Shown here one piece after another: positions 1,617 through 53,861 of a stretch of 64,000 bases of DNA (positions within the stretch are counted from its first letter, which is position 1; the number at the start of each line of letters is the position of its first letter). The stretch lies in NCBI GenBank assembly GCA_947629375.1, contig CANRDN010000005.1, positions 6,968 to 70,967 of the forward strand. The letters are read 5' to 3'. The notes under the pieces were generated by a model. That model saw only the letters and a list, made by a program, of their open reading frames with translations. It was not told the origin of the DNA and did not search any database. The stretch is from an uncultured Bacilli bacterium. Lineage in GTDB: Bacteria > Bacillota_I > Bacilli_A > RF39 > UBA660. The translations under genes and the position numbers were made by a program.

Positions 1617-1632
1617 AAATTATAATAGAGAA

Positions 1633-1663
1633 GTGTTAAATATTTTTAATTTAACACTTTTTA
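1633..1663 (+). terminator. rho-independent terminator
   Basis: Hairpin GTGTTAAAT / ATTTAACAC followed by TTTTT, directly after the 1128..1616 ORF. Confidence 0.45.
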
Positions 1664-1723
1664 TTGTGTGAAAAAAAACATTGATGTAAAATTATATTAT
1701 AAGAGATATTAGGAGTGATAAAA

Positions 1724-2923
1724 ATGGCAATTACAAATGGTTTGTCTGATGATAAAATAACTGCTGTTGCTTTAGGTGATGGTAAAGATTATACAACTGT
1801 AAATATTGTTGCTCTCAATGATGTTATTTCTTCAATGAATAGTGCTTTGGAACTCTTTTTGACTACTTGTGATGGTGATGTAGCTTCTAATAATGAAAAC
1901 TTTATAACATTAAGTAATATAGAAGTAGATGGACCTAAAGCTTTGGCATCTGGATTTGATGATCAGCTTGAAGGAATTGCTACTAATATTCATTCCGTAA
2001 TAGGTTCACTAACAGAATATGTAAATCAAGTTGAAGCAAATGACAGTAGTTTAGGAGAAAAAATTCCTTTGCCACCAAAAAAGACAAGAACGACAGTTAC
2101 GGAAGAAGAACAAAAACAATTTAATGAAATACTTCCTCCAGAGACACAATATGATCCATCCCATGCTGAATTCTTTAAGACTATATCTCTTAATGATTTA
2201 AGTAATGTTTTATATGCTTTAACTTATTTTGCCGATGCCAATCAAATGACAGTTGAACAGTTACTTTTGAATGTTCAAAGTGGCGACAATTTAAAAGAAT
2301 TATTGTTATCTCAACCAAATATTTCTGATGAACTAAGATCATATCTAGAAAACACTCCATCAGATATTTTGCTAAAAGATCTACAAGTTTTATTGTACAA
2401 TCAAGCTTTGTCTAGCGAAATATTTAACTTTGATGATGAAACAACTTCTTTCTTAGAAAAATTTACCACAACAACTTTAACGCTTATGGATGGTAATCAA
2501 ACGGGAGAGGTTTCTATAGATGATGTATTTGGTAACTCGCAAGTATTAAAAGAGAAATTATATCGTTTGGAATATTATATGACTAATACATTTTCGGGTA
2601 TTGGAGAATATGATATTCAAAAAGTATTGTTAAATTTGTATGATTCTGGTGAAGCAACAGGTGGATTAACTCAAGTTAAATCGATGTTAGAAGGTACTGA
2701 AGATAAAGATATATTTGTGAATTATATTAGAACTGAAATTGATTCAATGGCAAAGAAAAATGGAGTTACTTATGAAGTATTACTAACAGATGAAAAGTAC
2801 CAACAGGATCTTATGACAATACCAATTAATTTAGATAAATTGTTATTGTATGGTGAAATAATGGCAAGAACTGATAATCCTAGCAAAATGTGGTTTACAA
2901 CAGAACAAGAAAAAAATGATTAG
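1724..2923 (+). CDS. hypothetical protein (400 aa), first gene of the WXG100-like module
   Basis: ATG at 1724 is preceded by AGGAGTGA; the ORF-track start at 1715 is GTG. No motif recognised. Confidence 0.5.
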   Translation: MAITNGLSDDKITAVALGDGKDYTTVNIVALNDVISSMNSALELFLTTCDGDVASNNENFITLSNIEVDGPKALASGFDDQLEGIATNIHSVIGSLTEYVNQVEANDSSLGEKIPLPPKKTRTTVTEEEQKQFNEILPPETQYDPSHAEFFKTISLNDLSNVLYALTYFADANQMTVEQLLLNVQSGDNLKELLLSQPNISDELRSYLENTPSDILLKDLQVLLYNQALSSEIFNFDDETTSFLEKFTTTTLTLMDGNQTGEVSIDDVFGNSQVLKEKLYRLEYYMTNTFSGIGEYDIQKVLLNLYDSGEATGGLTQVKSMLEGTEDKDIFVNYIRTEIDSMAKKNGVTYEVLLTDEKYQQDLMTIPINLDKLLLYGEIMARTDNPSKMWFTTEQEKND

Positions 2924-2935
2924 GGTGTGATTAAA

Positions 2936-3283
2936 ATGTCGAAAATAGTAAAAGTAAATTTTTCTCAATTAGCTGAAAGAGGAAAAAATCAAAAAGAACT
3001 TGCTGAAAAATTTGAAAAAGCAAGACAAGATTTTCAAACAATTGTTAATTCATTAAATGAGTGTTGGGAAGGAATAGATGCAACAGCATTTCTAAATAAT
3101 TGCAATAATTATTTAGAATATTTAAAAAATGACACATTGTACTTTGATACTTTAGGTGAGTACTTTACTACTTGTTCTCTTTCATATAATAAAGTTGTTC
3201 TTGAAAATAAAGAAAAAATAAATCGTTTGAATAATTTAATTGACCAAGATAATCAAGAACAACCAGGAGGGGTGTCATTATGA
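2936..3283 (+). CDS. WXG100-superfamily-like small helical protein
   Basis: About 115 aa with a central motif CWEGIDATAF that matches W-x-G-x-x-A-x-A-F. The stop overlaps the start of the next ORF (ATGA), indicating translational coupling. Confidence 0.5.
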   Translation: MSKIVKVNFSQLAERGKNQKELAEKFEKARQDFQTIVNSLNECWEGIDATAFLNNCNNYLEYLKNDTLYFDTLGEYFTTCSLSYNKVVLENKEKINRLNNLIDQDNQEQPGGVSL

Positions 3284-3627
3284 CTATGAAAATTGATACA
3301 GATGCCTTAACTGCAAAAATTACACAATTAAAAGAGCAACAGCGTATTATTGCCGAAGTTTTAGAAAAGTTTAAAGGTGACACATTGATAATGGATTCCT
3401 ATTGGTCTAGTAATACGGGTGATACAGTAAAAGAGAATTTACTCGAATATATGTCTGCCTTTGACATAATAAATAGACAAATAACAATCTATGTAACCTT
3501 TTTAGAAAGTGTTGTTAATGGATATGTAGATGAAGAAAATATGATAGCAAATCAAATTGAAATGGCAGCAAATGTCCCAATAGGGGTAAATGAAGTAAAG
3601 CAAAATAATGATATGCAGAATATGTAA
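3280..3627 (+). CDS. small helical protein, WXG100/Lap-like partner
   Basis: 115 aa. RBS AGGAGGGG at 3265-3272. Translationally coupled to the upstream WXG-like ORF. Contains YWSSNTGD ... SAF. Confidence 0.4.
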   Translation: MTMKIDTDALTAKITQLKEQQRIIAEVLEKFKGDTLIMDSYWSSNTGDTVKENLLEYMSAFDIINRQITIYVTFLESVVNGYVDEENMIANQIEMAANVPIGVNEVKQNNDMQNM

Positions 3628-3674
3628 GAGATTTTCTAATAGATAAATAGATTAAGCAATATCTAGGAGGTATT

Positions 3675-5918
3675 ATGGCACTTACAACATTAATAAAAAA
3701 TGAACAGCTTTTTAGAATAGAAAAAGAAGTTGGAGATTTTACATTTTCTTTAGAAACTTTTGGTGACACAATTGCAGGTTCTTTAAGTACATTTTCCAGT
3801 AGTATAAGTAAATCTATAGAAAGTCTTGGAAACGATAACTGGGATGATGAAGTAAAGGATCAAGTTGATGAAACAAAGACAAATATATCAAATGAAATCA
3901 CCAAAGCATCAAAGACTGCCGATTATATTAAGGCAGGTCAAGGACCAGCCGAAACATTAAAATCACTTGTAAAAAAGTATGTAACTGAATATAACAATTA
4001 CGAATGGGAAAAAAATAAATATGTTGTACAATATAGACAAGTTACAATAGATGATGGAGAAGAATCCAAAACAGTTGATGAAGAAACAGAAGAATATAAA
4101 GAACATATTTATAAATTACAGGCATATGCTAAAAGTGTTCGCGAATTAGAAACTGAATGTTTAAGAATATATAATGGTGTTAAGGAATATTTTGAAAGTT
4201 ATAATTTTGAAACCTGTGAAGGAACTATTGATCCAACTACACTGACAAGTGATTTTAATTTTGATGAAAAATTCAAAACATATTTTGATGAATTAATGGC
4301 TACTACACTTGGACAATCAGAAGAGACAAAAGAAGAAGATGATAACCCACCACTACCTGAAGGATTCTTAGATACTACATACGATGATGAAAATGAAGCA
4401 ATAGATGCATTGGTAGCTAGTGGATGGGATGATGAAAAAGCAAGAGCTTATGTTGAAAGTCACAAAGATGATGAACTCTCTTTTTATCCTAAACCACCGG
4501 AAGGATTTATTGGAGCAACATACGATAGTGAAGCAGAAGCTGTTGAAGCATTATTAGCGAATGACGAATGGAGTAGAGAAGAAGCAGAAGCCTATGTTAA
4601 AAAACATCTAGACAAAGATGATATTGGACTTTATCCTAAACCACCGGAAGGATTTATTGGAGGAACATATGATAATGAAGCAGAAGCTCTTGAAGCATTA
4701 TTAGCGAAAGATGAATGGAATAAAGACGAAGCAGAAGCCTATATTAAAAAGCATATAGACAAAGGTGATATTAGACTTTATCCTGATCCACCTGAAGGAT
4801 TTATTGGAGCAACATACGATAGTGAAGCAGAAGCTGTTGAAGCATTATTAGCGAATAATGAATGGAATGATGACGAAGCAGAAGCCTATATTAAAAAGCA
4901 TTTAGACAAAGGTGATATTAGACTTTATCCTGATCCACCAGAAGGATTTATTGGAGCAACATACGATAGTGAAGCAGAAGCTGTTGAAGCATTATTAGCG
5001 AATAATGAATGGAATGATGACGAAGCAAAAGCCTATGTTAAAAAACATCTAGACAAAGGTGACATTGAACTATACCCTTCTACTCCAGAAGGATTTAATG
5101 AAGTAACATATGATGATAAAGATGAAGCAATAGATGCATTAATAGCTAGTGGATGGGATGATAAAAAAGCAACAGCTTATGTTGAAAGTCACCAAGGAAA
5201 TGGAGTTAATATTTATCCTGATCCTCCAGAAGGATTTATTGGAGCAACATATGATACTAAAGATGAAGCAGTTGCAGTATTGACAGGTAAAGGATGGAAT
5301 GATGACGAAGCAAGGGCTTATGTTGATAAACACATAGAACAACAGGATATATCTATTACTCCACATCCTCAAGCTGGCCCTCCTCCAACTGGTTATGAAC
5401 CAGAAAGCACACCATCTGCTTCTGATTCTGGTCAAGGTGGTCAAACAGGTAATCCTGTGGCAGGAGATACTCCGTCACCAGACCCAGCATCAGATGAAAC
5501 TGGTTCACAAAATATGGAATGTTCTACACCTGGATATATTCCAGCAGGATGTCCAAGACCTATGACATGTTCGGCACCAAACGACAGCACACCATCTACA
5601 TCTGATTTTGGTCAAGGTGATCAAACAGGCAATCCTGTGGCAGGAGATACTCCGTCACCAGACCCAGCAACAGATGAAACTGGTTCACAATATATGGGAT
5701 GTTATCCACCTGGATATACTCCAGCAGGATGTCAAGCTCCTGGAAATACAGGGGATGAATCTCCAATCCCTCAAGATGAAGATTCTAATGACTTAATTCC
5801 TGGTAAATCTGCTAATCCAAGCAACTATAGTAGTGGTGGAGGTGGAGGTGGAAGCGGTATAGATCCTTTAACTTTAGTCAACTTAGAAGCTCAGGCAAGA
5901 TGGCGTAATAGATTTTGA
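3675..5918 (+). CDS. large repeat-containing protein (747 aa): helical N-terminal domain, seven ~49-aa repeats, two ~60-aa repeats, and a Gly/Pro/Ser-rich tail
   Basis: RBS AGGAGG upstream. The repeats are visible at both DNA and protein level (PPEGFIGATYDSEAEAVEALLANNEWNDDEAEAYIKKHLDKGDIRLYPD). The C-terminus is GGGGGGSGIDPLTLVNLEAQARWRNRF. Confidence 0.6.
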   Translation: MALTTLIKNEQLFRIEKEVGDFTFSLETFGDTIAGSLSTFSSSISKSIESLGNDNWDDEVKDQVDETKTNISNEITKASKTADYIKAGQGPAETLKSLVKKYVTEYNNYEWEKNKYVVQYRQVTIDDGEESKTVDEETEEYKEHIYKLQAYAKSVRELETECLRIYNGVKEYFESYNFETCEGTIDPTTLTSDFNFDEKFKTYFDELMATTLGQSEETKEEDDNPPLPEGFLDTTYDDENEAIDALVASGWDDEKARAYVESHKDDELSFYPKPPEGFIGATYDSEAEAVEALLANDEWSREEAEAYVKKHLDKDDIGLYPKPPEGFIGGTYDNEAEALEALLAKDEWNKDEAEAYIKKHIDKGDIRLYPDPPEGFIGATYDSEAEAVEALLANNEWNDDEAEAYIKKHLDKGDIRLYPDPPEGFIGATYDSEAEAVEALLANNEWNDDEAKAYVKKHLDKGDIELYPSTPEGFNEVTYDDKDEAIDALIASGWDDKKATAYVESHQGNGVNIYPDPPEGFIGATYDTKDEAVAVLTGKGWNDDEARAYVDKHIEQQDISITPHPQAGPPPTGYEPESTPSASDSGQGGQTGNPVAGDTPSPDPASDETGSQNMECSTPGYIPAGCPRPMTCSAPNDSTPSTSDFGQGDQTGNPVAGDTPSPDPATDETGSQYMGCYPPGYTPAGCQAPGNTGDESPIPQDEDSNDLIPGKSANPSNYSSGGGGGGSGIDPLTLVNLEAQARWRNRF
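4347..5346 (+). repeat. in-frame tandem repeat, about 147 bp x 7 (49-aa unit)
   Basis: Near-identical 147-bp units, for example 4786-4932 versus 4933-5079. The outer copies are more degenerate. Confidence 0.75.
5406..5738 (+). repeat. two 180-bp direct repeats (60-aa unit STPS.SD.GQG.QTGNPVAGDTPSPDPA.DETGSQ)
   Basis: Near-identical DNA copies beginning at about 5406 and about 5586. Confidence 0.7.
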
Positions 5919-20771: not shown

Positions 20772-22676
20772 ATGTTTTTAAAGAAGATTGATGAAAGAAT
20801 AAGAATACTTTTTTTGATTATTATACTATTTTTAGTTTTCATAGTAGCAAGAGTTGCATACATCCAGTTGTTTGATTACAGAATGTTAAACGAGAAAGCA
20901 AATGACTTATGGAGTAGAAATCTGCCACTTGCTGCTGATAGAGGATTAATTCTTGATAGAAATGGAGCAGTACTTGCCGATAATATCACTACAACTAGTC
21001 TTGTTTTGATTCCTTCACAGTTAGAAGATAAAGAAGAGATTTCTAAAACTCTTGCCTCTATCTTGGGTGTTACTAAAGAAGAGATGGATAAACACGTATA
21101 CAAAGAAACTTCAATAGAAAGGGTGCATCCAGAGGGAAGACAACTATCTTATGAAGTAGCAGATAAAATAGATAAACTAAACTACAAAGGTGTATATCTT
21201 GTCAAAGAATCAAAAAGATATTATCCCAATAAAGAGATGCTTGCTCACGTTTTAGGGTATGTTGGAATCGATAATCAAGGCCTTTCTGGTATAGAGCTAC
21301 AATACGATTCTTATCTTACAGGAGTAGATGGCGCAATAAAGTATTTTAGTGATGCCAAAGGAAACAGTCTGAAACTTTCCGATATCTATGTTGCACCACA
21401 ACAAGGAATGAATATAACTTTAACCATCGATTATAACATTCAGACATCCCTCGAAAGAGAGTTAGATAATATCGTTTCAATGTTCAGTCCAGATATGGCT
21501 CTTGCCCTTGTAATGGACCCCAATACTGGAGAAATACTTGGAATGAGCTCAAGACCAACATATGACCCTAATAAATATCAAGAAGCATCTGTTACAACAA
21601 TTAATCGAAACTTACCGATTTGGGCCTCATACGAACCAGGAAGTACATTTAAAATAATAACGATGTCGTCAGCGGTAGAAGAAAAAGTTATAGACATTTT
21701 TAAAGATACTTTTGTGGATTCTGGAAGCGTAAAAATAGGAGGAGCAAGGATTGGTTGTTGGAAACCGAGTGGTCACGGACTTCAAACATACCTTCAGGTC
21801 TTGGAGAACTCTTGTAACCCAGGGTTTGTAAAACTAGGACTGATGCTTGGTAAAGAAAAGTTGTTTTCTTATATTGATTTATTTGGCTTTGGAAAGAAAA
21901 CTGGAATCGACTTAAATGGTGAGAGTGAAGGAATACTTTTTTCACTTGATAAAGTAAAAGACTTGGAACTTGCTACAACAGCTTTTGGTCAAGGAGTAAG
22001 TGTTACACCAATTCAACAAGTAAACGCAGTAAGTGCTGTCGTAAATGGTGGATATTTATATAAACCTTATATCGTAAAAAGTATATCAGAACCACTTACC
22101 AATAGTGTTATAAAGTCATATAATAAAGAGTTTGTAAGAAAGACAATCAGTAAAGAAACGAGTGATATAATGCGTTATTCTCTTGAAAGTGTCGTAGCTC
22201 GTGGCGGAGGAAGATATGCTTATATCGATGGATACCGTGTTGGTGGTAAAACTGGAACTGCTCAAAAAGTTGAAAATGGTAAATATTTAGTAAACAACTA
22301 CATAATGAGTTTTATGGCTATAGTACCCGCAAATGACCCAAAAGCAGTATTATACCTAGCAATCGATAATCCTAAAAATACAGCCCTTTTATCAAGTTAT
22401 ACGACGGCACCTATTGCAAGAAAAATACTTCTTGATATAATCGACGCTTTAGAGATTGAAAAGCAAGAAGGTGGAATCGAAAAAGTAAAGCAGTGGGATG
22501 ATATAACGTATATTGAAGTACCAAATTTAATTGGTAAAACACTTAAAGAAGCTACAAGAAATGCTTATCCAGTTGAGATAGAAGTAACAGGTAATGGTGA
22601 AAAAGTAGTAGAACAATCACCATCACCCGGGGAAAAAGTAGATATTACTGGAAAAATAAGAGTACTTTTAGGTTGA
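20772..22676 (+). CDS. class B penicillin-binding protein with a single C-terminal PASTA domain (FtsI/PBP2B/SpoVD family)
   Basis: N-terminal TM helix, dimerisation domain and transpeptidase motifs SxxK (STFK), SxN (SCN), KTG (KTGT). One PASTA domain at residues about 575-634. Confidence 0.9.
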   Translation: MFLKKIDERIRILFLIIILFLVFIVARVAYIQLFDYRMLNEKANDLWSRNLPLAADRGLILDRNGAVLADNITTTSLVLIPSQLEDKEEISKTLASILGVTKEEMDKHVYKETSIERVHPEGRQLSYEVADKIDKLNYKGVYLVKESKRYYPNKEMLAHVLGYVGIDNQGLSGIELQYDSYLTGVDGAIKYFSDAKGNSLKLSDIYVAPQQGMNITLTIDYNIQTSLERELDNIVSMFSPDMALALVMDPNTGEILGMSSRPTYDPNKYQEASVTTINRNLPIWASYEPGSTFKIITMSSAVEEKVIDIFKDTFVDSGSVKIGGARIGCWKPSGHGLQTYLQVLENSCNPGFVKLGLMLGKEKLFSYIDLFGFGKKTGIDLNGESEGILFSLDKVKDLELATTAFGQGVSVTPIQQVNAVSAVVNGGYLYKPYIVKSISEPLTNSVIKSYNKEFVRKTISKETSDIMRYSLESVVARGGGRYAYIDGYRVGGKTGTAQKVENGKYLVNNYIMSFMAIVPANDPKAVLYLAIDNPKNTALLSSYTTAPIARKILLDIIDALEIEKQEGGIEKVKQWDDITYIEVPNLIGKTLKEATRNAYPVEIEVTGNGEKVVEQSPSPGEKVDITGKIRVLLG

Positions 22677-22748: not shown

Positions 22749-22867
22749 ACTAAAACATTGAAATAGAATTTGACAAATGAATTTTATAGATATTTAAAGT
22801 AAATATATGTAAAGTATAATGAAAATGAATATTTTATATGTTAGAATATAAAACTCGAGGTGAAAAA

Positions 22868-23854
22868 ATGGGAATATTACTACTTACTAAATCTGTTTTT
22901 GCAATTATGATAGGTTTTCTTCCAGCACTTGTTTTAGGTTTAATTTTGATTCCTATATTAAGGAAAAAGAAAATAGGTCAAAGAATAAGTATATATGTAG
23001 GTGATAATCATAAGAAAAAAGAAGGAACTCCTACGATGGGTGGTCTTATCTTTGTAATTCCAACGGTAATTGCCACATTGTTTTTGGTTCTTACCGATAA
23101 ACTGGAGATGACGCCTAATCTGATTATCATTTTGTTTGTCTTTGTAAGTTACTCGATAATTGGATTCTTAGATGACTTTTTAAGTATAAAAAAGAAAAAT
23201 AATGAAGGATTAACGACATATCAAAAATTATTTCTACAACTAATTGTTGCTCTTGGATTTTTCTATTTGTATATGCAAAAAGGCGGTCAAACAGCTTTAG
23301 TATCATCAACACTACATCTTAATATAGAGATGGGTTGGTTTTATGGAGTATTCTTACTTTTTATTTTGATTGGTGCATCGAATGCAGTTAATCTAACTGA
23401 TGGACTTGATGGTTTAGCTGGAGGATTATCGGCAATATCCTTTATTGCATTCGCTATCATTTCTATTGCTGTAGGATTTGAAGAGATTGGTATATTTACC
23501 TTTATTCTTGTTGGTGCTTTATTTGGATTCTTAATATTTAATACGCATCCAGCAAAGATTTTTATGGGGGATACGGGGTCGCTTGCATTAGGAGCAGTTA
23601 TGGCAGCAATTGCTATACTAACTCATAGAGAAGTAACATTACTTGTTGTTGCTAGTGTCTTCGTTGCTGAAACATTAAGTGTAATTTTGCAAGTAGTATG
23701 GTTAAGATTATTTCACAAAAAACTTTTCTTAATGACACCACTTCATCATCACTTTGAGAAATTGGGTTGGCAAGAAACTGACATCGTTAAATTATTCTGG
23801 GTAGTAGGACTTTTACTTACTATGGCAGGAATATATTATGGAGTATGGTTATAA
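22868..23854 (+). CDS. mraY: phospho-N-acetylmuramoyl-pentapeptide transferase
   Basis: ATG at 22868 after GAGGTGAAAAA. Conserved MraY motifs (DDFLS, NAVNLTDGLDGLA, HHHFE). Confidence 0.9.
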   Translation: MGILLLTKSVFAIMIGFLPALVLGLILIPILRKKKIGQRISIYVGDNHKKKEGTPTMGGLIFVIPTVIATLFLVLTDKLEMTPNLIIILFVFVSYSIIGFLDDFLSIKKKNNEGLTTYQKLFLQLIVALGFFYLYMQKGGQTALVSSTLHLNIEMGWFYGVFLLFILIGASNAVNLTDGLDGLAGGLSAISFIAFAIISIAVGFEEIGIFTFILVGALFGFLIFNTHPAKIFMGDTGSLALGAVMAAIAILTHREVTLLVVASVFVAETLSVILQVVWLRLFHKKLFLMTPLHHHFEKLGWQETDIVKLFWVVGLLLTMAGIYYGVWL

Positions 23855-23877
23855 AGAACTTTATGTTCTTTTTTTTA
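23854..23877 (+). terminator. rho-independent terminator
   Basis: AAGAAC / GTTCTT hairpin followed by T8. Confidence 0.5.
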
Positions 23878-23909
23878 TGTCTTTTTTATATATTTTAATA
23901 GGTGGTTAG

Positions 23910-24626
23910 ATGAACAAAAAGTATGGAAAATATCTTTTAGCAGTATCTTTTTTATTGATAATTTTTGGAATTGTAATGATCTATTCTTCATCTAGTATTT
24001 GGGCAGAGTATAAGTTTAATGACTCTTTTAAATATGTTAAACATCAAGTTTTATTTTTTGCAGTTGGAATAGTACTAATCTATCTTTTAAGTAAAGTAAA
24101 TTACGAATTTTATTATAAGAATGCTACCAAGATTTTTATTATTTGTTTAGTTTTGTTAGTACTTGTTCTAATACCAGGAATTGGTAGTGTTAGAAACGGA
24201 AGTAGAAGCTGGTTTGGAATAGGTGCTTTTGGAATTCAGCCAAGTGAATTTGCAAAACTGGCCTTAATAATTTTAACAAGTAAATATTTATCTATTTCTA
24301 ATAAGTTTATAAAGAATATTACCAAAGGTGTGTTTCCCATTTTATTACTAATGTTTTTAGTTTTTGGACTTATAATGTTACAGCCTGATTTTGGTACAGG
24401 AATGATTATTGTAGTTGGTATCTTAGCTCTTCTTTTTATAGCAGGAGTTAATATTAAATTTTTCTTAGGGCTTGGGGCTATTGGTGTTTTAGGAATCATC
24501 GGTCTAATTATAGTAGCACCATATCGAATGGATAGAATAACATCATTTATTGACCCTTGGAGTGATCCTTTAGGAACAGGCTTTCAAATAATTCAATCTT
24601 TGTACGCAATAGGTCCAGGTGAGTAA
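23910..24626 (+). CDS. ftsW: SEDS-family peptidoglycan glycosyltransferase (FtsW/SpoVE/RodA), N-terminal 238-aa segment of a gene split by an inserted element
   Basis: SEDS motifs QPSEFAKL, LQPDFGT and RITSFIDPWSDPLGTGFQIIQSLYAIGPG. The ORF ends abruptly (GE-stop) at the element junction. Confidence 0.8.
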   Translation: MNKKYGKYLLAVSFLLIIFGIVMIYSSSSIWAEYKFNDSFKYVKHQVLFFAVGIVLIYLLSKVNYEFYYKNATKIFIICLVLLVLVLIPGIGSVRNGSRSWFGIGAFGIQPSEFAKLALIILTSKYLSISNKFIKNITKGVFPILLLMFLVFGLIMLQPDFGTGMIIVVGILALLFIAGVNIKFFLGLGAIGVLGIIGLIIVAPYRMDRITSFIDPWSDPLGTGFQIIQSLYAIGPGE

Positions 24627-24747
24627 ATGATTACGCGATAAAATGACTCTCAAAATTGGATACTCAATTCTCAATTTAAGAGATAGGATTTTTCTTTACT
24701 TTTTGTTATCTTATAATAGACGCGTTCAATAGAAAGGAGGAATACTA

Positions 24748-24912
24748 GTGTTAGGTGGTTGTTATTACGGGAGTAATCATAATCAAAAAAGATATAAATA
24801 TTTGATGTTCTCAAATGTAGATTTAATATTACATAGTAATAAAATTAATAAAATTCCAGCTGAAAGATTCAGAAGAGAATATGTAATTGATTGTATTGAC
24901 TCTATAAGATAG
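24748..24912 (+). CDS. small hypothetical protein (54 aa, GTG start) in the element's left arm
   Basis: Strong RBS AAAGGAGG 6 nt upstream of GTG 24748. Missing from an ATG-only view; low confidence. Confidence 0.3.
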   Translation: MLGGCYYGSNHNQKRYKYLMFSNVDLILHSNKINKIPAERFRREYVIDCIDSIR

Positions 24913-25023
24913 AAGTTGATTAAAAAAATCAACTTTTTCTTTTGCCTAAAAGTTTCTTAAAAGTTAACTCTTAATTTATTTAATAATATTTGTAGTAAAA
25001 TCAAATTCGGTGGAAGTGAAGTT

Positions 25024-25749
25024 ATGAGTAGTAGAACTGATTTAACTAAAATGGGTAAGCATATTTTCGATTTAAGAAAAGGTTTAGGTTATACTCAAAA
25101 GCAATTAGGAGAAATGTTAGATGTTAGTGATAAAACTGTATCTAAATGGGAACAAGGAGATATTGCACCTGATATAACAATTCTAACTTCTTTAGCTAGT
25201 GCATTAAAAGTTAGTGTAAATGAAATCTTGTATGGTGAAAAAGAAGAGAAAGAAAATGAAGACGAGAAATCAATAAAGCTATTAAACCTTTACACAGAGC
25301 AAACCAAAATAAGTCTTACTAAGAAAATAGTACTATTCATATTTACAATTTTAGTGGTTGCTATTTTTGTATTTTATGTGGAGGACTACTTTAAATGGAA
25401 AGTAACAAAAATAAGAGCAAATGATGAGTTTAAGATATCTGGTTATATTTTTACAAATAATAAAGAATCAAAAATGGTAATTGATCAAATATCATATATT
25501 AGTTCAAATGATAAACTAAATGAACAACCACTGATAAAAAGAATTGAACTAAAAATAATATATAATGAAAAAACAATTTATACTAAATTGTCACAGTTTG
25601 ATAACCCTGAAATAATACAAAAAAGTTTTAACAATTATATTATCTCATTTGAAAAAAAATTTAAAATAAATACAGATCATTTAAAAATTGTAATTGATTG
25701 TATCGATGTTAACGATATTGACTATTTCTTTATAATTAACGATTTCTAA
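25024..25749 (+). CDS. membrane-anchored XRE-family HTH regulator (N-terminal HTH, one TM helix, C-terminal extracytoplasmic domain)
   Basis: HTH sequence YTQKQLGEMLDVSDKTVSKWEQG. TM helix IVLFIFTILVVAIFVFYV. RBS GGTGGAAGTGAAG. Confidence 0.75.
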   Translation: MSSRTDLTKMGKHIFDLRKGLGYTQKQLGEMLDVSDKTVSKWEQGDIAPDITILTSLASALKVSVNEILYGEKEEKENEDEKSIKLLNLYTEQTKISLTKKIVLFIFTILVVAIFVFYVEDYFKWKVTKIRANDEFKISGYIFTNNKESKMVIDQISYISSNDKLNEQPLIKRIELKIIYNEKTIYTKLSQFDNPEIIQKSFNNYIISFEKKFKINTDHLKIVIDCIDVNDIDYFFIINDF

Positions 25750-25833
25750 TTTTTGGAGATTATTGAAAATCTTTGATTTATATATTTATTTATATTATTA
25801 TGATTAGGTAAAATAGAAATGAAAGGAGGAAAT

Positions 25834-26649
25834 ATGAAGAACTTTAGAAAATTTGGATTACTTTTTTTAATGCTTTTAATTTTGGCACCGGTGACAACTT
25901 TAGCAGATGAAGGTGATTATAAAGTTTCAAGATTAGAAAAAAATGAAAATTTAGAATTACTTGGACAAAATACGAAGTATTTTAAAACAGTTACAACATA
26001 TGACAATTCAATTTATAATCTTTCTAGCAAAAATGTTTTAAACTCAATGTATAATGCTAAATCAGTTACAACAGAAATAACAGAAGAAGAGTACAATAGT
26101 GTAAGTAATGATAGCTCAATTGAAGTTAACGCTTTTACAACAGTAGAAACAACATATAAAATTATGACAACAAATTTATACAAAAATGGTGATTACTATA
26201 GATATGAAAATATTGTTGGTTGGAAAAATTTTCCAAAAGTAAGAGACTATGATGTAATTGCTATTGGTTTTTATAACAATGTAAAACCACATTCAATTTC
26301 TTTTGAATCAAAAAAATGTTCAAAGTCTAATGGTTGTGTTTATACTGCACTTAATACACCACAAATTTTTTCTACGGGATCAAGTGCAACATATATATTA
26401 CCAGCTTGGACAGATTTAACAAGTTTAAAGACTACTTACATAGTAGATGTAGAAAAAGTAAATCCATCTACAACCATAAAATATCAAGCTGCTTTCGGTG
26501 ACTATGCTCATTCAACTACAAAGGTTGGACAATTACAGGCAATTGAACACGAAGTTGTTCAAAATATAGGAATTCTTTTCGATACAAAGGTTGAGGATAA
26601 TTTCGATACTATTGACGAAGCTGATGTATTTTGGGAAGGCACTTGGTAA
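25834..26649 (+). CDS. secreted hypothetical protein (signal peptide), cargo of the element
   Basis: ATG at 25834 after AAAGGAGGA. N-terminus MKNFRKFGLLFLMLLILAPVTTLADEG looks like a signal peptide. Confidence 0.6.
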   Translation: MKNFRKFGLLFLMLLILAPVTTLADEGDYKVSRLEKNENLELLGQNTKYFKTVTTYDNSIYNLSSKNVLNSMYNAKSVTTEITEEEYNSVSNDSSIEVNAFTTVETTYKIMTTNLYKNGDYYRYENIVGWKNFPKVRDYDVIAIGFYNNVKPHSISFESKKCSKSNGCVYTALNTPQIFSTGSSATYILPAWTDLTSLKTTYIVDVEKVNPSTTIKYQAAFGDYAHSTTKVGQLQAIEHEVVQNIGILFDTKVEDNFDTIDEADVFWEGTW

Positions 26650-26703
26650 AAATTAAAGTATAATTTTTAATCCTTCTAATAGATTTTATTAGGAGGATTT
26701 TTT

Positions 26704-26808
26704 ATGGAAAGAAATATTAAATTATATTTTGATGGTAATACTTCTTTAGAGAGTTTAATAGAAAATTTTGTTTATGAATCATACAAGGAAAAAGAAAAAA
26801 TTGAATAA
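26704..26808 (+). CDS. small ORF (34 aa) overlapping the recombinase 5' end; possible directionality or accessory factor
   Basis: ATG at 26704 after AGGAGGATTTTTT. Different frame from the recombinase. Highly uncertain. Confidence 0.2.
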   Translation: MERNIKLYFDGNTSLESLIENFVYESYKEKEKIE

Positions 26809-28267
26809 ATTTATAGCAGGTATTTATATTAGATTATCTAAAGAAGATGAAATAAAAAATGATAATTCCTCTTATAGTGAAAGTGTAGAAAATCAAAAAG
26901 AATTATTATTAAATTATGTTAAAGAAAATAATTTTGTTTTGTATGACACATACATAGATGATGGCTATAGTGGTACTAACTTTAATCGACCTAGTTTTAA
27001 TAGATTAATTAGTGATATTGAAAATAATAAAGTTAATGTAGTTATTGTAAAAGATTTATCAAGACTTGGAAGAGATTATATCCTTACAGGTTACTATTTA
27101 GAAATGTGGTTTCCTAAGAAAAACATTAGATTTATTTCTATACTGGATAACATAGATACTTTTTCAAACAATAACATTAACTTTGACTTTGCACCTTTTA
27201 AAACTTTAATAAATGATATGTATTCAAGAGATAATTCTAAAAAAATAAAAACAGCACTAAGAACAAAACAACTTCAAGGAAAGTGGGTTGGGGGATGTAC
27301 TCCTTTTGGTTATATTCAAGATGAAAAAGATAAAAATCATTTAGTAATTAACAATGAAGAAGCCGATATTGTCAAAAAAATATACTCTCTTTTTTTGAGA
27401 GGATATTCAATTAATAAAATATCGGATTATTTATATAAAGAAAAAATCCTTCCACCAAATATTCAAAGAGATATAAATAGAAAAAATAACAATTTTCATT
27501 GGAGTAGTACAACGATAAAAACAATTTTAACAAATAGACTTTATACAGGTGATATGATTCAAAATAGAAGATCAAGAATTAATTACAAAGTTAGAACCTT
27601 AAAGAAAAATAATAAAGAAGATTGGATAGTTGTTTTAAATACTCATAAAGCAATTATTGATAAAGATGATTTTGATGATGTTCAAAGAATAATAAGTACT
27701 AATAGCAATATTAAATCAAATAAAAAAAATGATTATTTACTTTCAGGGTTTCTATATTGTGGTGAATGTAAAAATAGAATAGTAATTCAAAAGAGTGGAG
27801 AATACTTTTATACGATGTGTAATAATTATAGAAAAAATTCTAAATTAAAAGTTTGTACACCACATTCAAATAATTATTTTAAACTTGAAAAAACAATAAT
27901 AGACAATTTAAAAAAAATAATTTCAACTCTGGATATAGAAAAAGTTGTAGATAGATTTGATGAAAAAGTTAATCAAAAAAATAGTTTGGAAGATATCAAT
28001 TCTTTAAAGTCTAATCTCGATAGTATTTATCTTGACTATATCAATAAAAAAATTAAAGAAGATATGTATTTAAGAATTAGTGAAAGATTAACAAAAAAAA
28101 TAGAACAATTAGAAAATAAAAAAGTTGAAAAATATAATACTAGAGAATATGTAGAAAGTTATTTAAATAATATTTCAAAAGATGTACTTATAAGACTTAT
28201 CAAAAAAATAGAAATACATAAAGATAAATCAATTGATATTTATTTTAATTTTATCGCTCAAAAATGA
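26774..28267 (+). CDS. large serine recombinase (resolvase domain, recombinase domain, zinc ribbon, coiled coil)
   Basis: Catalytic Ser context AGIYIRLSKEDE. Zinc ribbon CGECKNR...CNNYRKNSKLKVCTPH. About 495 aa. The start is ambiguous (ATG 26774 or TTG 26801). The stop overlaps the ATG of the SEDS C-terminal segment. Confidence 0.9.
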   Translation: MNHTRKKKKLNKFIAGIYIRLSKEDEIKNDNSSYSESVENQKELLLNYVKENNFVLYDTYIDDGYSGTNFNRPSFNRLISDIENNKVNVVIVKDLSRLGRDYILTGYYLEMWFPKKNIRFISILDNIDTFSNNNINFDFAPFKTLINDMYSRDNSKKIKTALRTKQLQGKWVGGCTPFGYIQDEKDKNHLVINNEEADIVKKIYSLFLRGYSINKISDYLYKEKILPPNIQRDINRKNNNFHWSSTTIKTILTNRLYTGDMIQNRRSRINYKVRTLKKNNKEDWIVVLNTHKAIIDKDDFDDVQRIISTNSNIKSNKKNDYLLSGFLYCGECKNRIVIQKSGEYFYTMCNNYRKNSKLKVCTPHSNNYFKLEKTIIDNLKKIISTLDIEKVVDRFDEKVNQKNSLEDINSLKSNLDSIYLDYINKKIKEDMYLRISERLTKKIEQLENKKVEKYNTREYVESYLNNISKDVLIRLIKKIEIHKDKSIDIYFNFIAQK

Positions 28268-28650
28268 ACTCAGGTGGGCTTTTAGGAATGGGATTTTTAA
28301 AATCTAGACAGAAACAGTTTTATTTACCAGAACCACAGACAGACTTTATTTTTTCAATCATTAGTGAAGAGTTTGGTGTAATGGGGGTAATAATTGTTGT
28401 TGCATTATTTTTATTACTTGTTTACTTTGGTTTTAAGATTGCCATTAATGCCCAAGATGGCTTTGCAAAATATTTATCATTTGGATTAGTATTTCAAATA
28501 CTTATTCAAGCTATAATGAATCTTTGTGTAGTTATTGGACTTATTCCTGTTACTGGAGTAACTTTACCTTTCCTTAGTTATGGTGGTTCTTCCTTACTAG
28601 TCAGTATGGCTAGTATTGGCATTATTTTAAATATTTCAAAAAATAGTTAA
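28264..28650 (+). CDS. ftsW: SEDS-family protein, C-terminal 128-aa segment
   Basis: Contains SGGLLGMGFLKSRQKQFYLPEPQTDFIFSI and LPFLSYGGSSLL, the conserved SEDS C-terminal motifs. Confidence 0.8.
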   Translation: MNSGGLLGMGFLKSRQKQFYLPEPQTDFIFSIISEEFGVMGVIIVVALFLLLVYFGFKIAINAQDGFAKYLSFGLVFQILIQAIMNLCVVIGLIPVTGVTLPFLSYGGSSLLVSMASIGIILNISKNS

Positions 28651-28720: not shown

Positions 28721-29254
28721 ATGAATGGTATTGAATTATTAGAAGAATCAAAAATAGAAAATATGATTTATGAAGTAAGAGGAAAGCAAGTAATGTTGGA
28801 TTCTGATTTAGCTTTATTATACCAAGTTGAGACAAAAAGAATTAATGAAGCTGTTAGAAATAATTTAGAAAAATTTCCTGAAAGATTCTCTTGGTTATTG
28901 TCAAATAATGAATTGGATTTTTTGAGGTCGAAATTTTCGACCTCAAGTTTAGTGAATAATAATCATGGTTGTAGAAGATATAGTCCTCGTGTTTTTACTG
29001 AACAAGGTGTAGCGATGCTTGCCACTATTTTAAAATCTACTGTTGCAACTCAAGTTAGTATTGCTATTATGGATGCTTTTGTATTAATGCGAAAATATAT
29101 TTCTAATGAATTAATTGAACAGAAATATATTAACAATTTAGTGATAAAACATGATGAAGATATCAAATTGTTACAAGACTCTTTTAATAAATTCAAAGGG
29201 AAAAAGATTATGAAATTTATTTTAAAAAATATTAAACTTGAAGTTTTAGTTTGA
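28721..29254 (+). CDS. ORF6N-domain protein (KilA-N-related DNA-binding family)
   Basis: VRGKQVMLDSDLALLYQVETKRINEAVRNNLEKFPERF ... RRYSPRVFTEQGVAMLATIL matches the ORF6N consensus. Confidence 0.65.
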   Translation: MNGIELLEESKIENMIYEVRGKQVMLDSDLALLYQVETKRINEAVRNNLEKFPERFSWLLSNNELDFLRSKFSTSSLVNNNHGCRRYSPRVFTEQGVAMLATILKSTVATQVSIAIMDAFVLMRKYISNELIEQKYINNLVIKHDEDIKLLQDSFNKFKGKKIMKFILKNIKLEVLV

Positions 29255-38730: not shown

Positions 38731-40269
38731 ATGAATTTAATTTCATTATCATTTGTTCTTTTGTGTATTATTACTTTGATAATTTACTTTGTTATACCAA
38801 AGAAAATACAATGGATTGTTCTACTTATATCGAGTCTTGTTTTTCTATTCTACGATAATTTTAGTTTAGGTACATTTTTACAAGCCGGAGTAGTACTTTT
38901 AACTACATATACAATGGCTCGATTAATTGAAAAAAATCGTGATTCGAAGAAAGCAAAATATTTCTTAATTACTGGAATTTTAATTGTTTTAGGAGTTTTA
39001 CTCTACATTAAATATTCAAATATGTTTTTGAGTATGTTTAATAGTTTATTTGGAATTGTCGGATTAAACTTCAAATTTAAAATGATAAATACAGTTTCTT
39101 TAGTTGGTATTAGCTATTATTCTTTAATAATGATTAGTTATATGACAGATGTTTATAGAGGAACTTGTAAAGCTCAAAAAAATATTCTTAAGTGTGCTTT
39201 ATTTGTTTATTATTTCCCAATTTTAAATTCAGGACCATTTATTAGATATGGTGAACCGGGGGGGGTAGAGAACAATTTATATAATGGCCACAAGTTTAGT
39301 TATGAGCATATGTGTAGTGGACTAATTCGTATTGCGTGGGGTGTTTTTAAAGTTCTCGTAATATCTATACGACTTGGTTATTTTGTCGACACTGTCTTTT
39401 CGGATTTAAATGCATACCCTGGTATATTTACAATTATTGCTGTTTGCTTCTTCCCATTACAACTTTATACAAACTTCTCTGGATCAATTGATATTATTAT
39501 GGGTGTATCAGAAATAATGGGAATTGAATTACCTGAAAACTTCACGTCACCATTTTTCTCACGTACTATTACGGAGTTTTGGCGTAACTGGCATATTACT
39601 CTTGGATCTTGGTTAAAAGATTATGTATTTTATCCTTTACAATTATCTAGTGGTATTCAAAAACTTACTAAATTCTGCAAAAATCATTTTGGTAAAAAAG
39701 CCGGCAAAAAGATTCCAATGTTTTTATCAATGTTTATTATGTGGATTTTGATTGGAGCCTGGCACGGTGGTGCAGTTAAATTTATTATTGGTTCCGGTGT
39801 TCTTCAGTTCGTGTATATATTACTCGAAGATTTATTGACGCCTATCTCAGAAAAGTTAAATAAAAAACTTGGTATTAATACAGATACTTTTGGATATAGA
39901 TTATATCAAATGGTTCGAACATTCTTATTATTTTCTTTAGCAATGGTTTTCTTCCGTGCTGATAGTGTATCAAACGCAATTGAAATATTTAAAAATATGT
40001 TTGTATGGAATCCTTGGGTATTACTTGATAATGCTTCATTGTATAATGCAGGACTTGATTTATTAGATTTTCGTATTTTAATAATTTCTTTAGTTGTACT
40101 ATTTATTGTCGACTATTTAAAAAGAAAAATGAATGTACGCGAAAAATTATTTAGTCAAAATATTGTTTTTCGTTGGTTACTAATTTATGCTTTGTTATTT
40201 TCAATTATCATTTTTGGTTGCTACGGTCCTGGTTATGATGCTGCAGACTTTATATATCGTGGCTTTTAG
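38731..40269 (+). CDS. MBOAT-family membrane-bound O-acyltransferase (DltB/AlgI/PatA-like)
   Basis: 512 aa polytopic protein with a conserved His in a WRNWHITLGSWLKDY context, typical of MBOAT. Confidence 0.85.
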   Translation: MNLISLSFVLLCIITLIIYFVIPKKIQWIVLLISSLVFLFYDNFSLGTFLQAGVVLLTTYTMARLIEKNRDSKKAKYFLITGILIVLGVLLYIKYSNMFLSMFNSLFGIVGLNFKFKMINTVSLVGISYYSLIMISYMTDVYRGTCKAQKNILKCALFVYYFPILNSGPFIRYGEPGGVENNLYNGHKFSYEHMCSGLIRIAWGVFKVLVISIRLGYFVDTVFSDLNAYPGIFTIIAVCFFPLQLYTNFSGSIDIIMGVSEIMGIELPENFTSPFFSRTITEFWRNWHITLGSWLKDYVFYPLQLSSGIQKLTKFCKNHFGKKAGKKIPMFLSMFIMWILIGAWHGGAVKFIIGSGVLQFVYILLEDLLTPISEKLNKKLGINTDTFGYRLYQMVRTFLLFSLAMVFFRADSVSNAIEIFKNMFVWNPWVLLDNASLYNAGLDLLDFRILIISLVVLFIVDYLKRKMNVREKLFSQNIVFRWLLIYALLFSIIIFGCYGPGYDAADFIYRGF

Positions 40270-40280
40270 GGGGCGAAAAA

Positions 40281-41330
40281 ATGAAAAAGATTGTAAAAAG
40301 TATTGTTTTTATTATCATTTTTTGCCTAATATGGAACTATGTTTTTAAAATACTTTGGATAAATGAAAGACCAATATCTCAATTTTACAAAGAACCAAAT
40401 GATTCCTTAGATGTTGTCTATATTGGTGCTAGTAATGCTTATAAATCTTTTAATACCACACTAGCTTTTAATGAATATGGATTTGCAACAGGATTTCTTG
40501 CAGATGGTTCTCAACCGTTTGAAATGACAAAATATCTTATAAAAGAATCAGAGAAGTATCAAAGCCCAGCTGTATATGTAATCGATATATATAGATTATG
40601 TGTCGGTTCAGCAATAGAAGGAAACATCCGTAATAGTACCGATTCTATGAAATTTTCTTTAAACAGGATAGACGCTATAAACGCAATGTTAAAATATTCT
40701 GATATTGTAAAAGATGACCCTAATACCAAGTCAAAAGATAATGCTTTATATTACTATTTTAGTTTTATGCTATACCATAACAAATGGAAAAATATATCTT
40801 ATGAGAACTTTTCTGAAAGCAAAGAGTTCTACAAAGGATATATGTTAACTAAAAATGAAATAGAAATAAATGAACAAGAAAACTTTATTTGGCAGGACGA
40901 TATCCAAGAAATTCCAAAGGAAAGGTTAGAAATTTTAAATGATCTTTTGGACTATATCGATTCAAGTAAAGTTAATGTCTTATTTGTAATACCTAATCAC
41001 GTTTATACACCAGAAGCTAATTCACAGTTTAATTATGTTACTAAAGTTATTGAAGATAGAGGCTATGATGTTATTAATTTTAATACTTTAGATGACTTTA
41101 GAGGAGATTACGCTACTGAATTTTATGATATTAGTCACTTTAATGTTTATGGAGCAACTAAATATACTTTGTATTTTGGTAAATATTTAAAAGAACACTA
41201 TAATTTACCAGATCATCGAGAAGATGAGAAGTATCACTCTTGGTACGAAGTATACGATAAACTTAAAGAAAGATATAAAGAGCTTACTGGTAATAATTTT
41301 GATGATATGCTTTCAAAATACAAAAAATAA
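40281..41330 (+). CDS. DltD/SGNH-like membrane-anchored acyltransferase partner (paralogue 1)
   Basis: N-terminal TM helix. Block I-like VVYIGASN and block V D-x-x-H (DISHFN). Lies directly downstream of the MBOAT gene. Confidence 0.55.
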   Translation: MKKIVKSIVFIIIFCLIWNYVFKILWINERPISQFYKEPNDSLDVVYIGASNAYKSFNTTLAFNEYGFATGFLADGSQPFEMTKYLIKESEKYQSPAVYVIDIYRLCVGSAIEGNIRNSTDSMKFSLNRIDAINAMLKYSDIVKDDPNTKSKDNALYYYFSFMLYHNKWKNISYENFSESKEFYKGYMLTKNEIEINEQENFIWQDDIQEIPKERLEILNDLLDYIDSSKVNVLFVIPNHVYTPEANSQFNYVTKVIEDRGYDVINFNTLDDFRGDYATEFYDISHFNVYGATKYTLYFGKYLKEHYNLPDHREDEKYHSWYEVYDKLKERYKELTGNNFDDMLSKYKK

Positions 41331-41354
41331 AAAAAATTATAATATCGAGGAGGT

Positions 41355-42428
41355 GTGAAAATGAAAAAAATTGCAAAAAGTCTTGTTTTTATCTTTATCT
41401 TTTGTCTATTGTGGAACTACACTTTTAAAATACTTTGGATGAGTGATAAACCAATAACTCAATTTTATGAAGAACCAAATGACTCTTTAGATGTTATCTA
41501 TATTGGTTCTAGCAACGTCTTTTCATCTTTTAATACCACCCTTGCATTTAATGAATATGGATTTGCAACGGGAATGCTTGCTGGGGCTTCTCAGCCATTC
41601 GAACTTGTAAAATACTTAATTAAAGAATCTGAAAAGTACCAAAAACCTGCTGTATATGTAATCGATTTATATAAAGCGTGTGCTAATACAGCAACAGAAG
41701 GAAATATCCGTAATACTACAGATGCTATGAAGTTTTCTTTAAATAGATTCGATGCCATAAATGCTATGTTAAAATATTCCGATATAGTAAAGGATGATTC
41801 TAATACCAAGTCAAAAGATAATGCTTTATATTACTACTTTAGCTTTATGCTATATCACAATAGATGGAAAAACTTATCTTACGATGATTTTTCTGAAAGT
41901 AGAACATTTTACAAGGGATATATGTTATCAAGTGAAGCCATAGAAGTTAATGAGCAAGATAACTTTGTTTGGCAAGATGACGTTCAAGAACTTCCCAAGG
42001 ATAATTTAGAGATTTTAAATAATCTTTTAGACTATATTGATTCAAGTAAAGTTAATGTCTTATTTATTGTCCCTAATAAAGTTTATATGCCTTCAGTTAA
42101 TTCACAAATGAATTATGCTATTAAAGTTATTGAAGATAGAGGTTATGAAGTTATTAATTTCAATACTTTAGATGACTTTAGAGGGGATTATGCTACAGAA
42201 TTTATGGATTATAATCATTATAATGTTTATGGAGCAACTAAATATACTTTGTATTTTGGAAAATATTTAAAAGAACATTACAATTTACCGGATCATCGAG
42301 AAGATGAGAGATATAGCTCTTGGTACGAAGTATACGAAAGAGTTAAAGAAAAATATAAAGAACTTACTGGTAATAATTTCGATGATATGCTTTCAAAATA
42401 CAAAAGTAAAAAAAGTTATTTCTCTTAA
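41355..42428 (+). CDS. DltD/SGNH-like membrane-anchored acyltransferase partner (paralogue 2)
   Basis: About 70% identical to 40281..41330 by eye. Same motifs VIYIGSSN and DYNHYN. Confidence 0.55.
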   Translation: MKMKKIAKSLVFIFIFCLLWNYTFKILWMSDKPITQFYEEPNDSLDVIYIGSSNVFSSFNTTLAFNEYGFATGMLAGASQPFELVKYLIKESEKYQKPAVYVIDLYKACANTATEGNIRNTTDAMKFSLNRFDAINAMLKYSDIVKDDSNTKSKDNALYYYFSFMLYHNRWKNLSYDDFSESRTFYKGYMLSSEAIEVNEQDNFVWQDDVQELPKDNLEILNNLLDYIDSSKVNVLFIVPNKVYMPSVNSQMNYAIKVIEDRGYEVINFNTLDDFRGDYATEFMDYNHYNVYGATKYTLYFGKYLKEHYNLPDHREDERYSSWYEVYERVKEKYKELTGNNFDDMLSKYKSKKSYFS

Positions 42429-53858: not shown

Positions 53859-53861
53859 TCT

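Follow-up and report, generated by a model that had tools for sequence, protein, structure and literature searches.

Background

Intervening elements have been described so far in sigK, spsM, spoVFB, spoVR, gerE and yabG. The skin elements, which split sigK in Bacillus subtilis and Clostridioides difficile (recombinases SpoIVCA and CD1231, respectively), carry their recombinase at the edge, next to the 3' fragment of the gene, and share this recombinase across hosts, with little or no shared cargo (bioRxiv 10.1101/2022.02.25.481979). SPbeta in spsM, vfbin in spoVFB, vrin in spoVR and yin in yabG interrupt mother-cell genes, and the studied cases, such as SPbeta with SprA, are excised by serine recombinases (PMC4191935, PMC10747680). 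The gin element, found in gerE of Bacillus cereus ATCC 10987, has a large serine recombinase (LSR), GirC, which acts together with a 42-aa directionality factor, GirX, devoid of any conserved motif; in its attachment (att) sites, an imperfect inverted repeat surrounds a short core which the sites have in common (PMC5595907). For skin, SPbeta, vfbin, vrin, gin and yin, the accepted view is that such insertions can be tolerated in genes used only by the mother cell, which is bound to lyse (PMC4191935, PMC5595907, PMC10747680). Here we describe a 3655-bp element, with an LSR gene of its own, which splits a SEDS gene of the spoVE type in an uncultured, RF39-like gut bacterium. It was found in a stretch of 64,000 nt, referred to as the window (contig CANRDN010000005.1, positions 6,968 to 70,967, forward strand), to which all coordinates refer unless preceded by a locus label.

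As for skin, precise excision, here predicted from the sequence, would rebuild a sporulation-type gene. The target is a SEDS polymerase gene instead of a sigma factor gene, the insert is 3.65 kb long and free of phage genes, against prophage-like elements of 14.6-48 kb, and the host is uncultured. With gin, it shares a non-phage nature and the use of an LSR, two short open reading frames (ORF1, 54 aa, and ORF2, 34 aa) being the candidate counterparts of GirX; gin, however, has three recombinase genes and targets a small regulator gene, whereas a single LSR is present here, the cargo, composed of a regulator and a secreted protein, is fixed, and the element appears to have co-diverged with its hosts. 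SPbeta, vfbin, vrin and yin differ in being prophages or prophage remnants of cultured Bacillus, Geobacillus and Clostridium, none of them in a peptidoglycan synthase gene. The fdxN, nifD and hupL elements of heterocyst-forming cyanobacteria (XisF and other recombinases) provide a precedent for several elements removed in a terminally differentiated cell, but belong to another phylum and developmental programme, and the likeness is that of the general LSR fold and of the logic of the system. Tn4451 is, again, a small non-phage element moved by one LSR, TnpX; this mobilisable transposon confers resistance and is lax in its choice of target, in contrast to the one fixed target, in a conserved gene, observed here.

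No split spoVE, spoVD, ftsW or penicillin-binding protein (PBP) gene was found in the literature searched, from which most subscription journals were missing, in line with an earlier annotation of the window (the original prediction), which knew of no such element in a spoVE/ftsW-type gene. The mechanism is already known; novelty lies in the genes targeted, in the lineage, in the minimal and conserved architecture, and in the evidence that inheritance has long been vertical.

Results

The two halves of a SEDS gene can be rejoined in frame

Two ORFs on the + strand, 23910..24626 (238 aa) and 28264..28650 (128 aa), are separated by about 3.6 kb, and both match the Pfam family PF01098 (FTSW_RODA_SPOVE). 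The 5' half covers positions 4-231 of the 356 of the profile (E 6e-65), the 3' half positions 227-353 (E 2e-48), and the two abut along the profile, with neither gap nor overlap. The hexamer CAGGTG is present twice, at 24616-24621 and at 28271-28276, and bounds the 3655-bp insert. Fusion at the hexamer produces an in-frame gene of 1086 nt, coding for 361 aa and reading ...YAIGPGGLLGMGF... Uninterrupted metagenome proteins of 360-362 aa align with the joined protein along its entire length, at 74-81% identity; the joined protein is a member of PF01098, and its matches to the spoVE, ftsW and rodA models extend from one end to the other. The break point is the conserved AIGPGGLLGMG loop, within the most conserved motif of the family. 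When unspliced, the 5' ORF continues past the junction to a TAA at 24624-24626, one codon on. At the opposite edge, the TGA stop of the recombinase gene (28265-28267) overlaps the ATG opening the 3' ORF (ATGA, 28264-28267), and the recombinase gene ends 3 nt before the core.

An identical recombinase was found on 5 contigs of the species of the window, and further species and samples show this architecture as well; the arrangement is therefore not an assembly artefact. No joined allele above 81% identity was retrieved from 5.8 billion protein clusters, the species of the window showing the split form on its 5 contigs.

The original prediction had described most of this locus from its letters: the two halves at precisely these positions, CAGGTG at both junctions, where the frame can be joined without a gap, a large serine recombinase at the right end, and, alongside, mraY and a SpoVD-like class B PBP with one PASTA domain. 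All of these are borne out by the profile matches reported here and below, and the possibility it had raised against itself, that the halves might fail to align as one SEDS protein, did not materialize.

Attachment sites and recombinase

The attP site was rebuilt from the ends of seven independent elements, namely that of the window and those of loci L083, L064, L084, L085, L108 and L110 (L numbers denote related loci). In all seven, the core GG is the centre about which dyad symmetry is highest: 14-19 of 24 mirrored positions are complementary there, as compared to 0-11 at any other offset. A weaker symmetry peak is found in attB at the same GG. The arms of the site, TTTATCGC ... GCGATAAA, lie about 14 nt from the core. 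The attR core of L084 is CTGGTG, so that, in this element, the identity between attL and attR begins at the GG. This is the anatomy expected for serine integrase sites, with crossover predicted at 24618-24619 and 28273-28274. The predicted junctions are AATTCAATCTTTGTACGCAATAGGTCCAGGTGGGCTTTTAGGAATGGGATTTTTAAAA for the restored gene (attB) and TTAATTTTATCGCTCAAAAATGAACTCAGGTGAGTAAATGATTACGCGATAAAATGAC for the excised circle (attP).

The recombinase has the three domains of an LSR, i.e. Resolvase (PF00239, E 1.6e-21), Recombinase (PF07508, E 2e-24) and Zn_ribbon_recom (PF13408, E 4e-11), and matches the PHROG 95 integrases with an E-value of 7e-103. Its catalytic serine sits in an invariant YIRLSKEDE motif. 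The nearest solved catalytic domain is that of TnpX (2mhc, E 2e-28), while the best NCBIfam match is XisF, with a score of 131.8 bits, far under the cutoff. A segment of about 85 residues following the zinc ribbon is present in the protein of the window and precisely absent from relatives of 413-415 aa; its position would fit that of the coiled-coil inserted in the zinc ribbon domain, a structure needed for attP x attB synapsis (PMC10754689). Many recombinases of the family (L084:6001-7248, L108:7001-8242 and protein clusters P0131-P0158) are shortened to 405-415 aa by the internal loss of precisely these 85 or so residues, and still keep the C-terminal IEIHSDKSIDIYFNF motif. Such natural coiled-coil-less LSRs might be excision-only or inactive.

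The same element and recombinase family in other genomes

The SEDS gene is uninterrupted in nearly all of 80 GTDB species-representative loci, which thus provide the empty site that the original prediction had proposed to look for in relatives. The same five-ORF element, 3.45-3.67 kb long, was found at the same codon in L064, L083, L084, L085 and L108/L109, for a total of six species, including that of the window. In silico, all seven elements tested allow the gene to be joined in frame. Seven diverged hosts carry the gene free of frameshifts and stops, in contrast to the frameshifted copies that would have pointed to a dead gene.

All nine LSR relatives checked, out of those with at least 49% identity, sit directly upstream of a SEDS 3' fragment. 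At 49-50% identity, the elements at the SEDS site carry different cargo: a SpaA-domain protein is encoded in L110/L111, and the element of L106/L107 is larger and codes for a group II intron reverse transcriptase. The recombinase family is dedicated to the SEDS site, with a variable cargo, as in skin elements, and this strengthens the skin-like reading. LSRs with 46-48% identity have targets other than SEDS. One of them, L112:6001-7524, is located elsewhere than the SEDS gene; in L113:3016-6358, an LSR directly precedes the C-terminal 572 residues of a P-type cation ATPase, the gene of which is apparently split. A duplicate of the last 32 SEDS codons was also observed at L110:8449-8544, about 0.8 kb downstream of the gene and after an ORF of 220 aa; it may be the footprint of another insertion at the 3' site of the SEDS gene.

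Inheritance and selection

Trees of the hosts were based on MraY and the SEDS 5' part, and those of the element on the recombinase, the regulator and the secreted protein. In the MraY tree, a single clade unites the six species that bear the five-ORF element; its sister is L003, a metagenome-assembled genome (MAG) with an intact gene, followed by L005. Two cherries, (window, L083) and (L085, L108), are recovered for hosts and element alike, and occur together in only 3 of the 105 six-taxon topologies. Between species, the DNA of the element is 66-72% identical. Synonymous divergence (dS) is similar in the two, at 0.9-1.2 for the element and 1.15-1.35 for the host genes, all values being near saturation.

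With the roughness that saturation entails, the ratio of nonsynonymous to synonymous divergence (dN/dS) is 0.127 when split SEDS genes are compared with each other, and 0.094 among intact ones: the split gene is under purifying selection. Within the element, dN/dS is about 0.3 for the recombinase, 0.43 for the secreted protein, 0.48 for the helix-turn-helix (HTH) regulator, 0.7 for ORF1 and 1.1 for ORF2. The simplest reading of these data would be one old insertion, vertically inherited, in a gene which is useful while split. If the split gene stayed functional, it must be reconstituted, and the element would therefore be excised in some cells.

Further insertions in the spoVD-like and SEDS genes

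In several relatives, the neighbouring spoVD-like PBP gene is also interrupted, at sites coding for catalytic motifs. It is cut at EPGS|TFK, in the SxxK motif, in L083 (2986-5794) and L007 (1-1563), at LE|NSCNPGF, in the SxN motif, in L108 (564-2998), and at GQGVSV|TPIQQ (GQG..TP) in L005 (703-2896). In L083, L108 and L005, a separate LSR, 25-27% identical to that of the window, lies just upstream of the PBP 3' part; the contig of L007 provides no more than 534 nt ahead of that part. The cargo of the PBP-splitting elements includes giant surface proteins.

A second cut in the SEDS gene was found after PVTG, at about residue 331, in L064:14655-20717, L083:11790-12919 and L084:7545-13248, where the element carries ParA and ParB genes. 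In an Erysipelotrichales MAG (L059:10921-12520), an LSR with 35% identity, encoded on the other strand, takes up the same site. The PVTG-site element is 98.6% identical between L064 and L083 and is therefore still spreading, unlike the five-ORF element, which is old. In L083, the two genes are interrupted three times altogether. Genes needed for growth could not tolerate such repeated insertions, while genes used only in a cell due to lyse can.

Contents of the element

The features of the locus are collected in Table 1. The insert is composed of five ORFs, all on the + strand, coding, in this order, for ORF1, a regulator of the XRE family, a secreted protein, ORF2 and the LSR. Its GC content is 24.0%, versus 29.4% for the flanks.

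Table 1. Features of the split SEDS locus and of the inserted element. Positions are those of the window; RBS, ribosome-binding site.
Feature	Position	Strand	Basis and remarks
Class B PBP, SpoVD-like, intact in the window	20772..22676	+	PBP_dimer, Transpeptidase, one PASTA domain (Pfam)
mraY	22838..23854	+	Pfam Glycos_transf_4, MraY_sig1
Terminator-like hairpin after mraY, AAAGAACTTTATGTTCTTTTTTTT	~23855-23882	+	Common to the six element-bearing species only
SEDS (spoVE-type) 5' part, codons 1-237	23910..24621	+	PF01098 and in-frame join
attL (predicted), core CAGGTG 24616-24621	24594..24645	.	Core common to attR; predicted crossover GG 24618-24619
Left-end conserved repeats, CTCTCAAAATT...ATTCTCAATTTAAGAGATAGG	24647..24687	+	Conserved across six aligned elements
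ORF1, 54 aa, strong RBS	24748..24912	+	Same place in all six mini-elements (54-60 aa)
Membrane-anchored XRE-family regulator, 241 aa	25024..25749	+	Pfam HTH_3, E 9e-14; PHROGs repressor-type families
Secreted all-beta protein, signal peptide, 276 aa, adhesin-like cargo	25819..26649	+	AlphaFold model
Hairpin, 14 pairs followed by a T run	26669..26699	+	Terminator scan; kept in 4 of 6 aligned elements
ORF2, 34 aa, RBS TTAGGAGGATTTTTT, overlaps the recombinase start	26704..26808	+	All six elements, 31-35 aa
LSR, 488-499 aa according to the start codon chosen	26768..28267	+	Pfam domains, PHROG 95
attR (predicted), core CAGGTG 28271-28276	28245..28300	.	Core and attP symmetry; predicted crossover GG 28273-28274
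SEDS 3' part, codons 238-361	28277..28650	+	PF01098; the unspliced ORF opens at ATG 28264

ORF1 shows the motif IPERYKR.EYIIDKI across the six mini-elements, and has no match in Pfam or PHROGs. The conserved left-end repeats found upstream of it could be an operator for the XRE regulator. The latter is composed of an N-terminal HTH_3 domain, one transmembrane segment and a C-terminal domain of about 115 aa, and is kept in all six elements, with 32-55% identity. For the secreted protein, no sequence family was matched in Pfam, NCBIfam-type models or PHROGs. Its AlphaFold model (pLDDT 78) has an all-beta fold, for which Foldseek reports weak matches to Cna/MSCRAMM/pilin domains, with query TM-scores of about 0.25-0.3, and the family to which it belongs comprises about 600 clusters at 50% identity. 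Homologues of the regulator (54% over 68 aa) and of the secreted protein (30%) were also observed downstream of the intact SEDS gene of L004 (8468-10213), a locus with no recombinase match; this cargo pair thus also occurs outside the element.

The RBS of ORF2 falls within the 3' arm of the hairpin at 26669-26699, which could act as a terminator of the secreted-protein gene, as a structure sequestering the RBS, or both. ORF2 is a second candidate directionality factor, or else a candidate leader peptide. No Rfam match was found between 22500 and 29500, and a sigma-70 scan performed no better than on shuffled sequences (35 sites found versus 39.4 expected).

Within the element, PHROGs matches are limited to integrase and repressor-type families. 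A prophage, or a remnant of one, was considered and rejected: no phage structural, packaging or lysis genes are present, the size is 3.65 kb, and the nearest IMG/VR recombinases are only 30-33% identical to the LSR. The insert is a small non-phage integrative element, in line with the original prediction, which had noted its very small size and suggested that it could be a domesticated switch instead of a prophage.

Target genes and host

The order of the genes in the window (PBP, mraY, SEDS) is that of the SpoVE gene context. The PBP exceeds the cutoff of the SpoVD equivalog model TIGR02214 (699.8 versus 688). For the SEDS protein, the spoVE model TIGR02615 is the best-scoring one, with 431.7, while the rodA model gives 319. 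Three loci of the Bacillus type (L052, L053 and L066) run pbpB, spoVD, mraY, SEDS, and then sigE and sigG; the PBP of the window is about 32% identical to the first of their PBPs and 45-50% to the second, which occupies the SpoVD position, and the SEDS proteins are 45-55% identical. Two tandem PBPs are also kept in L026 and L033, and the PBP of the window again matches the second. By synteny and hidden Markov model (HMM) scores, the pair corresponds to spoVD and spoVE, the strict spoVE cutoff being missed.

In most other relatives, mraY and the SEDS gene are directly coupled. The six hosts of the element alone share, in the spacer between them (23855-23909), a terminator hairpin and a short AT-rich region preceding the SEDS start.

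Relatives of the host are uncultured MAGs, labelled as 'Bacilli', 'Tenericutes' or 'Mycoplasmatota', recovered from the guts of humans, rabbits, chickens and ruminants; their genomes measure about 1.3 Mb. Firmicutes bacterium CAG:460 is among them; CAG-460 is a genus within RF39, family UBA660 (PMC13155120). The window is placed in RF39 by its similarity to such relatives.

Other observations were made in the window. The SEDS gene is directly followed by an ORF6N / anti-repressor-like gene (28721-29254), as in L020, L024, L037, L039 and L108; this looks like either a conserved neighbour or an old element remnant. The region 30-5918 contains a cluster of unannotated proteins, including two helical ones of about 115 aa (2927..3627) and one of 747 aa with about 7 tandem repeats of about 48 aa (YP.PPEGFIGATYD.EAEA.EALLA), which might be a cluster of secretion-system substrates. 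Two tandem paralogues of 349 and 357 aa follow an MBOAT-type acyltransferase gene at 38731-42428, and four small paralogous lipoprotein genes are located at 51701-54272.

Discussion

Taken together, these results make it probable that the 3655-bp element is excised, in the manner of skin, from the spoVE-type SEDS gene of a terminally differentiating mother cell. The element would have been integrated by its own LSR into the coding sequence of the gene, in an uncultured, small-genome, RF39-like member of the gut Bacilli. Recombination between attL and attR at the core GG would release it as a circle and restore the 361-aa frame. This would take place in the mother cell during sporulation, as described for skin in sigK, SPbeta in spsM and gin in gerE, while the forespore would retain the element. 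The directionality factor is probably ORF1 or ORF2, and its expression may be controlled by the XRE regulator through the left-end repeats. The mother cell is the most likely setting because the target is, by synteny and HMM scores, the orthologue of a mother-cell cortex-synthesis gene, and because up to three insertions occur at once in the spoVE- and spoVD-like genes of relatives. The original prediction had proposed a skin-like programmed rearrangement from the single locus, and this proposal is now supported by the symmetry of attP, the six-species clade, the purifying selection, the dedicated LSR and the further insertions.

Several results weigh against this interpretation. Neither product of excision, i.e. 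the attB junction or the circular attP junction, was seen. The SEDS protein stays below the spoVE cutoff of 448.8 and passes the ftsW model TIGR02614 (402 versus 337.5). Sporulation of RF39 bacteria is a bioinformatic prediction only, made from gene content (PMC10868615). In the window and in the closely related loci examined, no sporulation genes were found, either by running Pfam on ten unannotated ORFs of the window or by tblastn against 1.35 Mb of related loci, with Spo0A, SpoIIID, SpoIVA, SpoVT, SpoVS, SspA and SigE of B. subtilis as queries; apart from the Bacillus-type loci, only relatives with a SEDS identity of 55-57% yielded sigE and sigG. No confident sigma-E or sigma-K promoter could be called in the left end, in the region upstream of the recombinase or in the mraY-SEDS spacer, which have a GC content of 24-29%; conserved blocks did emerge from the alignments of these three regions. 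Because dS is saturated, the dN/dS values and the comparison of ages are rough, and the two candidate directionality factors, ORF1 and ORF2, evolve almost neutrally.

According to a different, and rather unlikely, explanation, an ordinary site-specific element has knocked out a dispensable gene: sporulation would be in the course of being lost, spoVE and spoVD would be neutral landing pads, and no programmed excision would occur. Repeated loss of sporulation and wall genes in RF39 and its neighbours (PMC10868615) is consistent with this, as are the relatives bearing two or three insertions in the two genes, the many related LSRs which, lacking the coiled-coil, might be crippled, the GC content of the element, lower than that of its flanks as in foreign DNA, and the clearly horizontal spread, between two species, of the third element found in the SEDS gene. 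A neutral landing pad is, however, hard to reconcile with a split gene free of frameshifts and stops in seven diverged hosts and evolving under a constraint (dN/dS about 0.13) close to that of its intact orthologues. Element and hosts appear, moreover, to have co-diverged within one clade, which argues that the gene was selected while split, and the recombinase itself is under purifying selection.

Less probable still is a reversible on/off switch independent of sporulation, operating in the manner of active lysogeny, by which a signal sensed through the XRE regulator would toggle a peptidoglycan polymerase in growing or stationary cells. Such a device would account for the conserved membrane-anchored regulator and the operator-like repeats; a full-length LSR assisted by a directionality factor can act both ways (PMC5595907), excision of the yin element of Clostridium botulinum depends on growth phase (PMC10747680), and the predicted status of sporulation in the host leaves room for it. 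An excised element that does not replicate would, however, be lost upon division unless re-integration were efficient, and variants without the coiled-coil that attP x attB synapsis requires are common in the clade; the orthology of the target and the co-occurring spoVD insertions point instead to the cortex machinery of the mother cell.

It is very improbable that the two halves are translated separately and assemble into a split protein, with no rearrangement, for although the recombinase stop overlaps, in the window, the ATG opening the 3' ORF, to which translation could be coupled, and the 5' ORF ends just one codon past the junction, this overlap is not conserved, the break lies inside the most conserved motif of the family, and, as a general mechanism, the idea is rejected by the 3' fragments of L064, L083, L084, L085 and L108, which have no start supplied by the element and lie about 15-25 nt after the recombinase stop.

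Mother-cell excision of the element may be part of a wider pattern, which is put forward more tentatively. The spoVE and spoVD orthologues of RF39-like Bacilli could be a hot spot, with at least five distinct LSR att sites in catalytic or most conserved motifs, and the 3.6-kb element could be a vertically inherited, fixed and domesticated switch; in some species the recombinase, having lost the coiled-coil, may be capable of excision only. Rearrangement of DNA to assemble the cortex synthase genes would then be a regular part of development across the clade, and this would be the first genomic argument that these bacteria, with their reduced genomes, undergo terminal mother-cell differentiation. 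In a stronger variant, the switch would act outside sporulation and toggle wall synthesis in a lineage approaching wall-lessness.

Conclusion

The element would add the cortex peptidoglycan synthase pair, i.e. a spoVE-type SEDS protein and, in relatives, a spoVD-type PBP, to the known targets of intervening elements, and would extend these to uncultured, genome-reduced gut bacteria. The family offers a compact set of natural, diverged LSR/att pairs acting on one conserved target, including coiled-coil-less variants, of interest for work on recombination directionality and for genome-engineering tools. Split genes escaping annotation may explain why spoVD appeared under-represented in RF39 genomes (PMC10868615). 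The attB and attP junctions, or an enrichment of the bacteria in ethanol-resistant fractions, would provide a cheap handle on whether RF39 bacteria sporulate.

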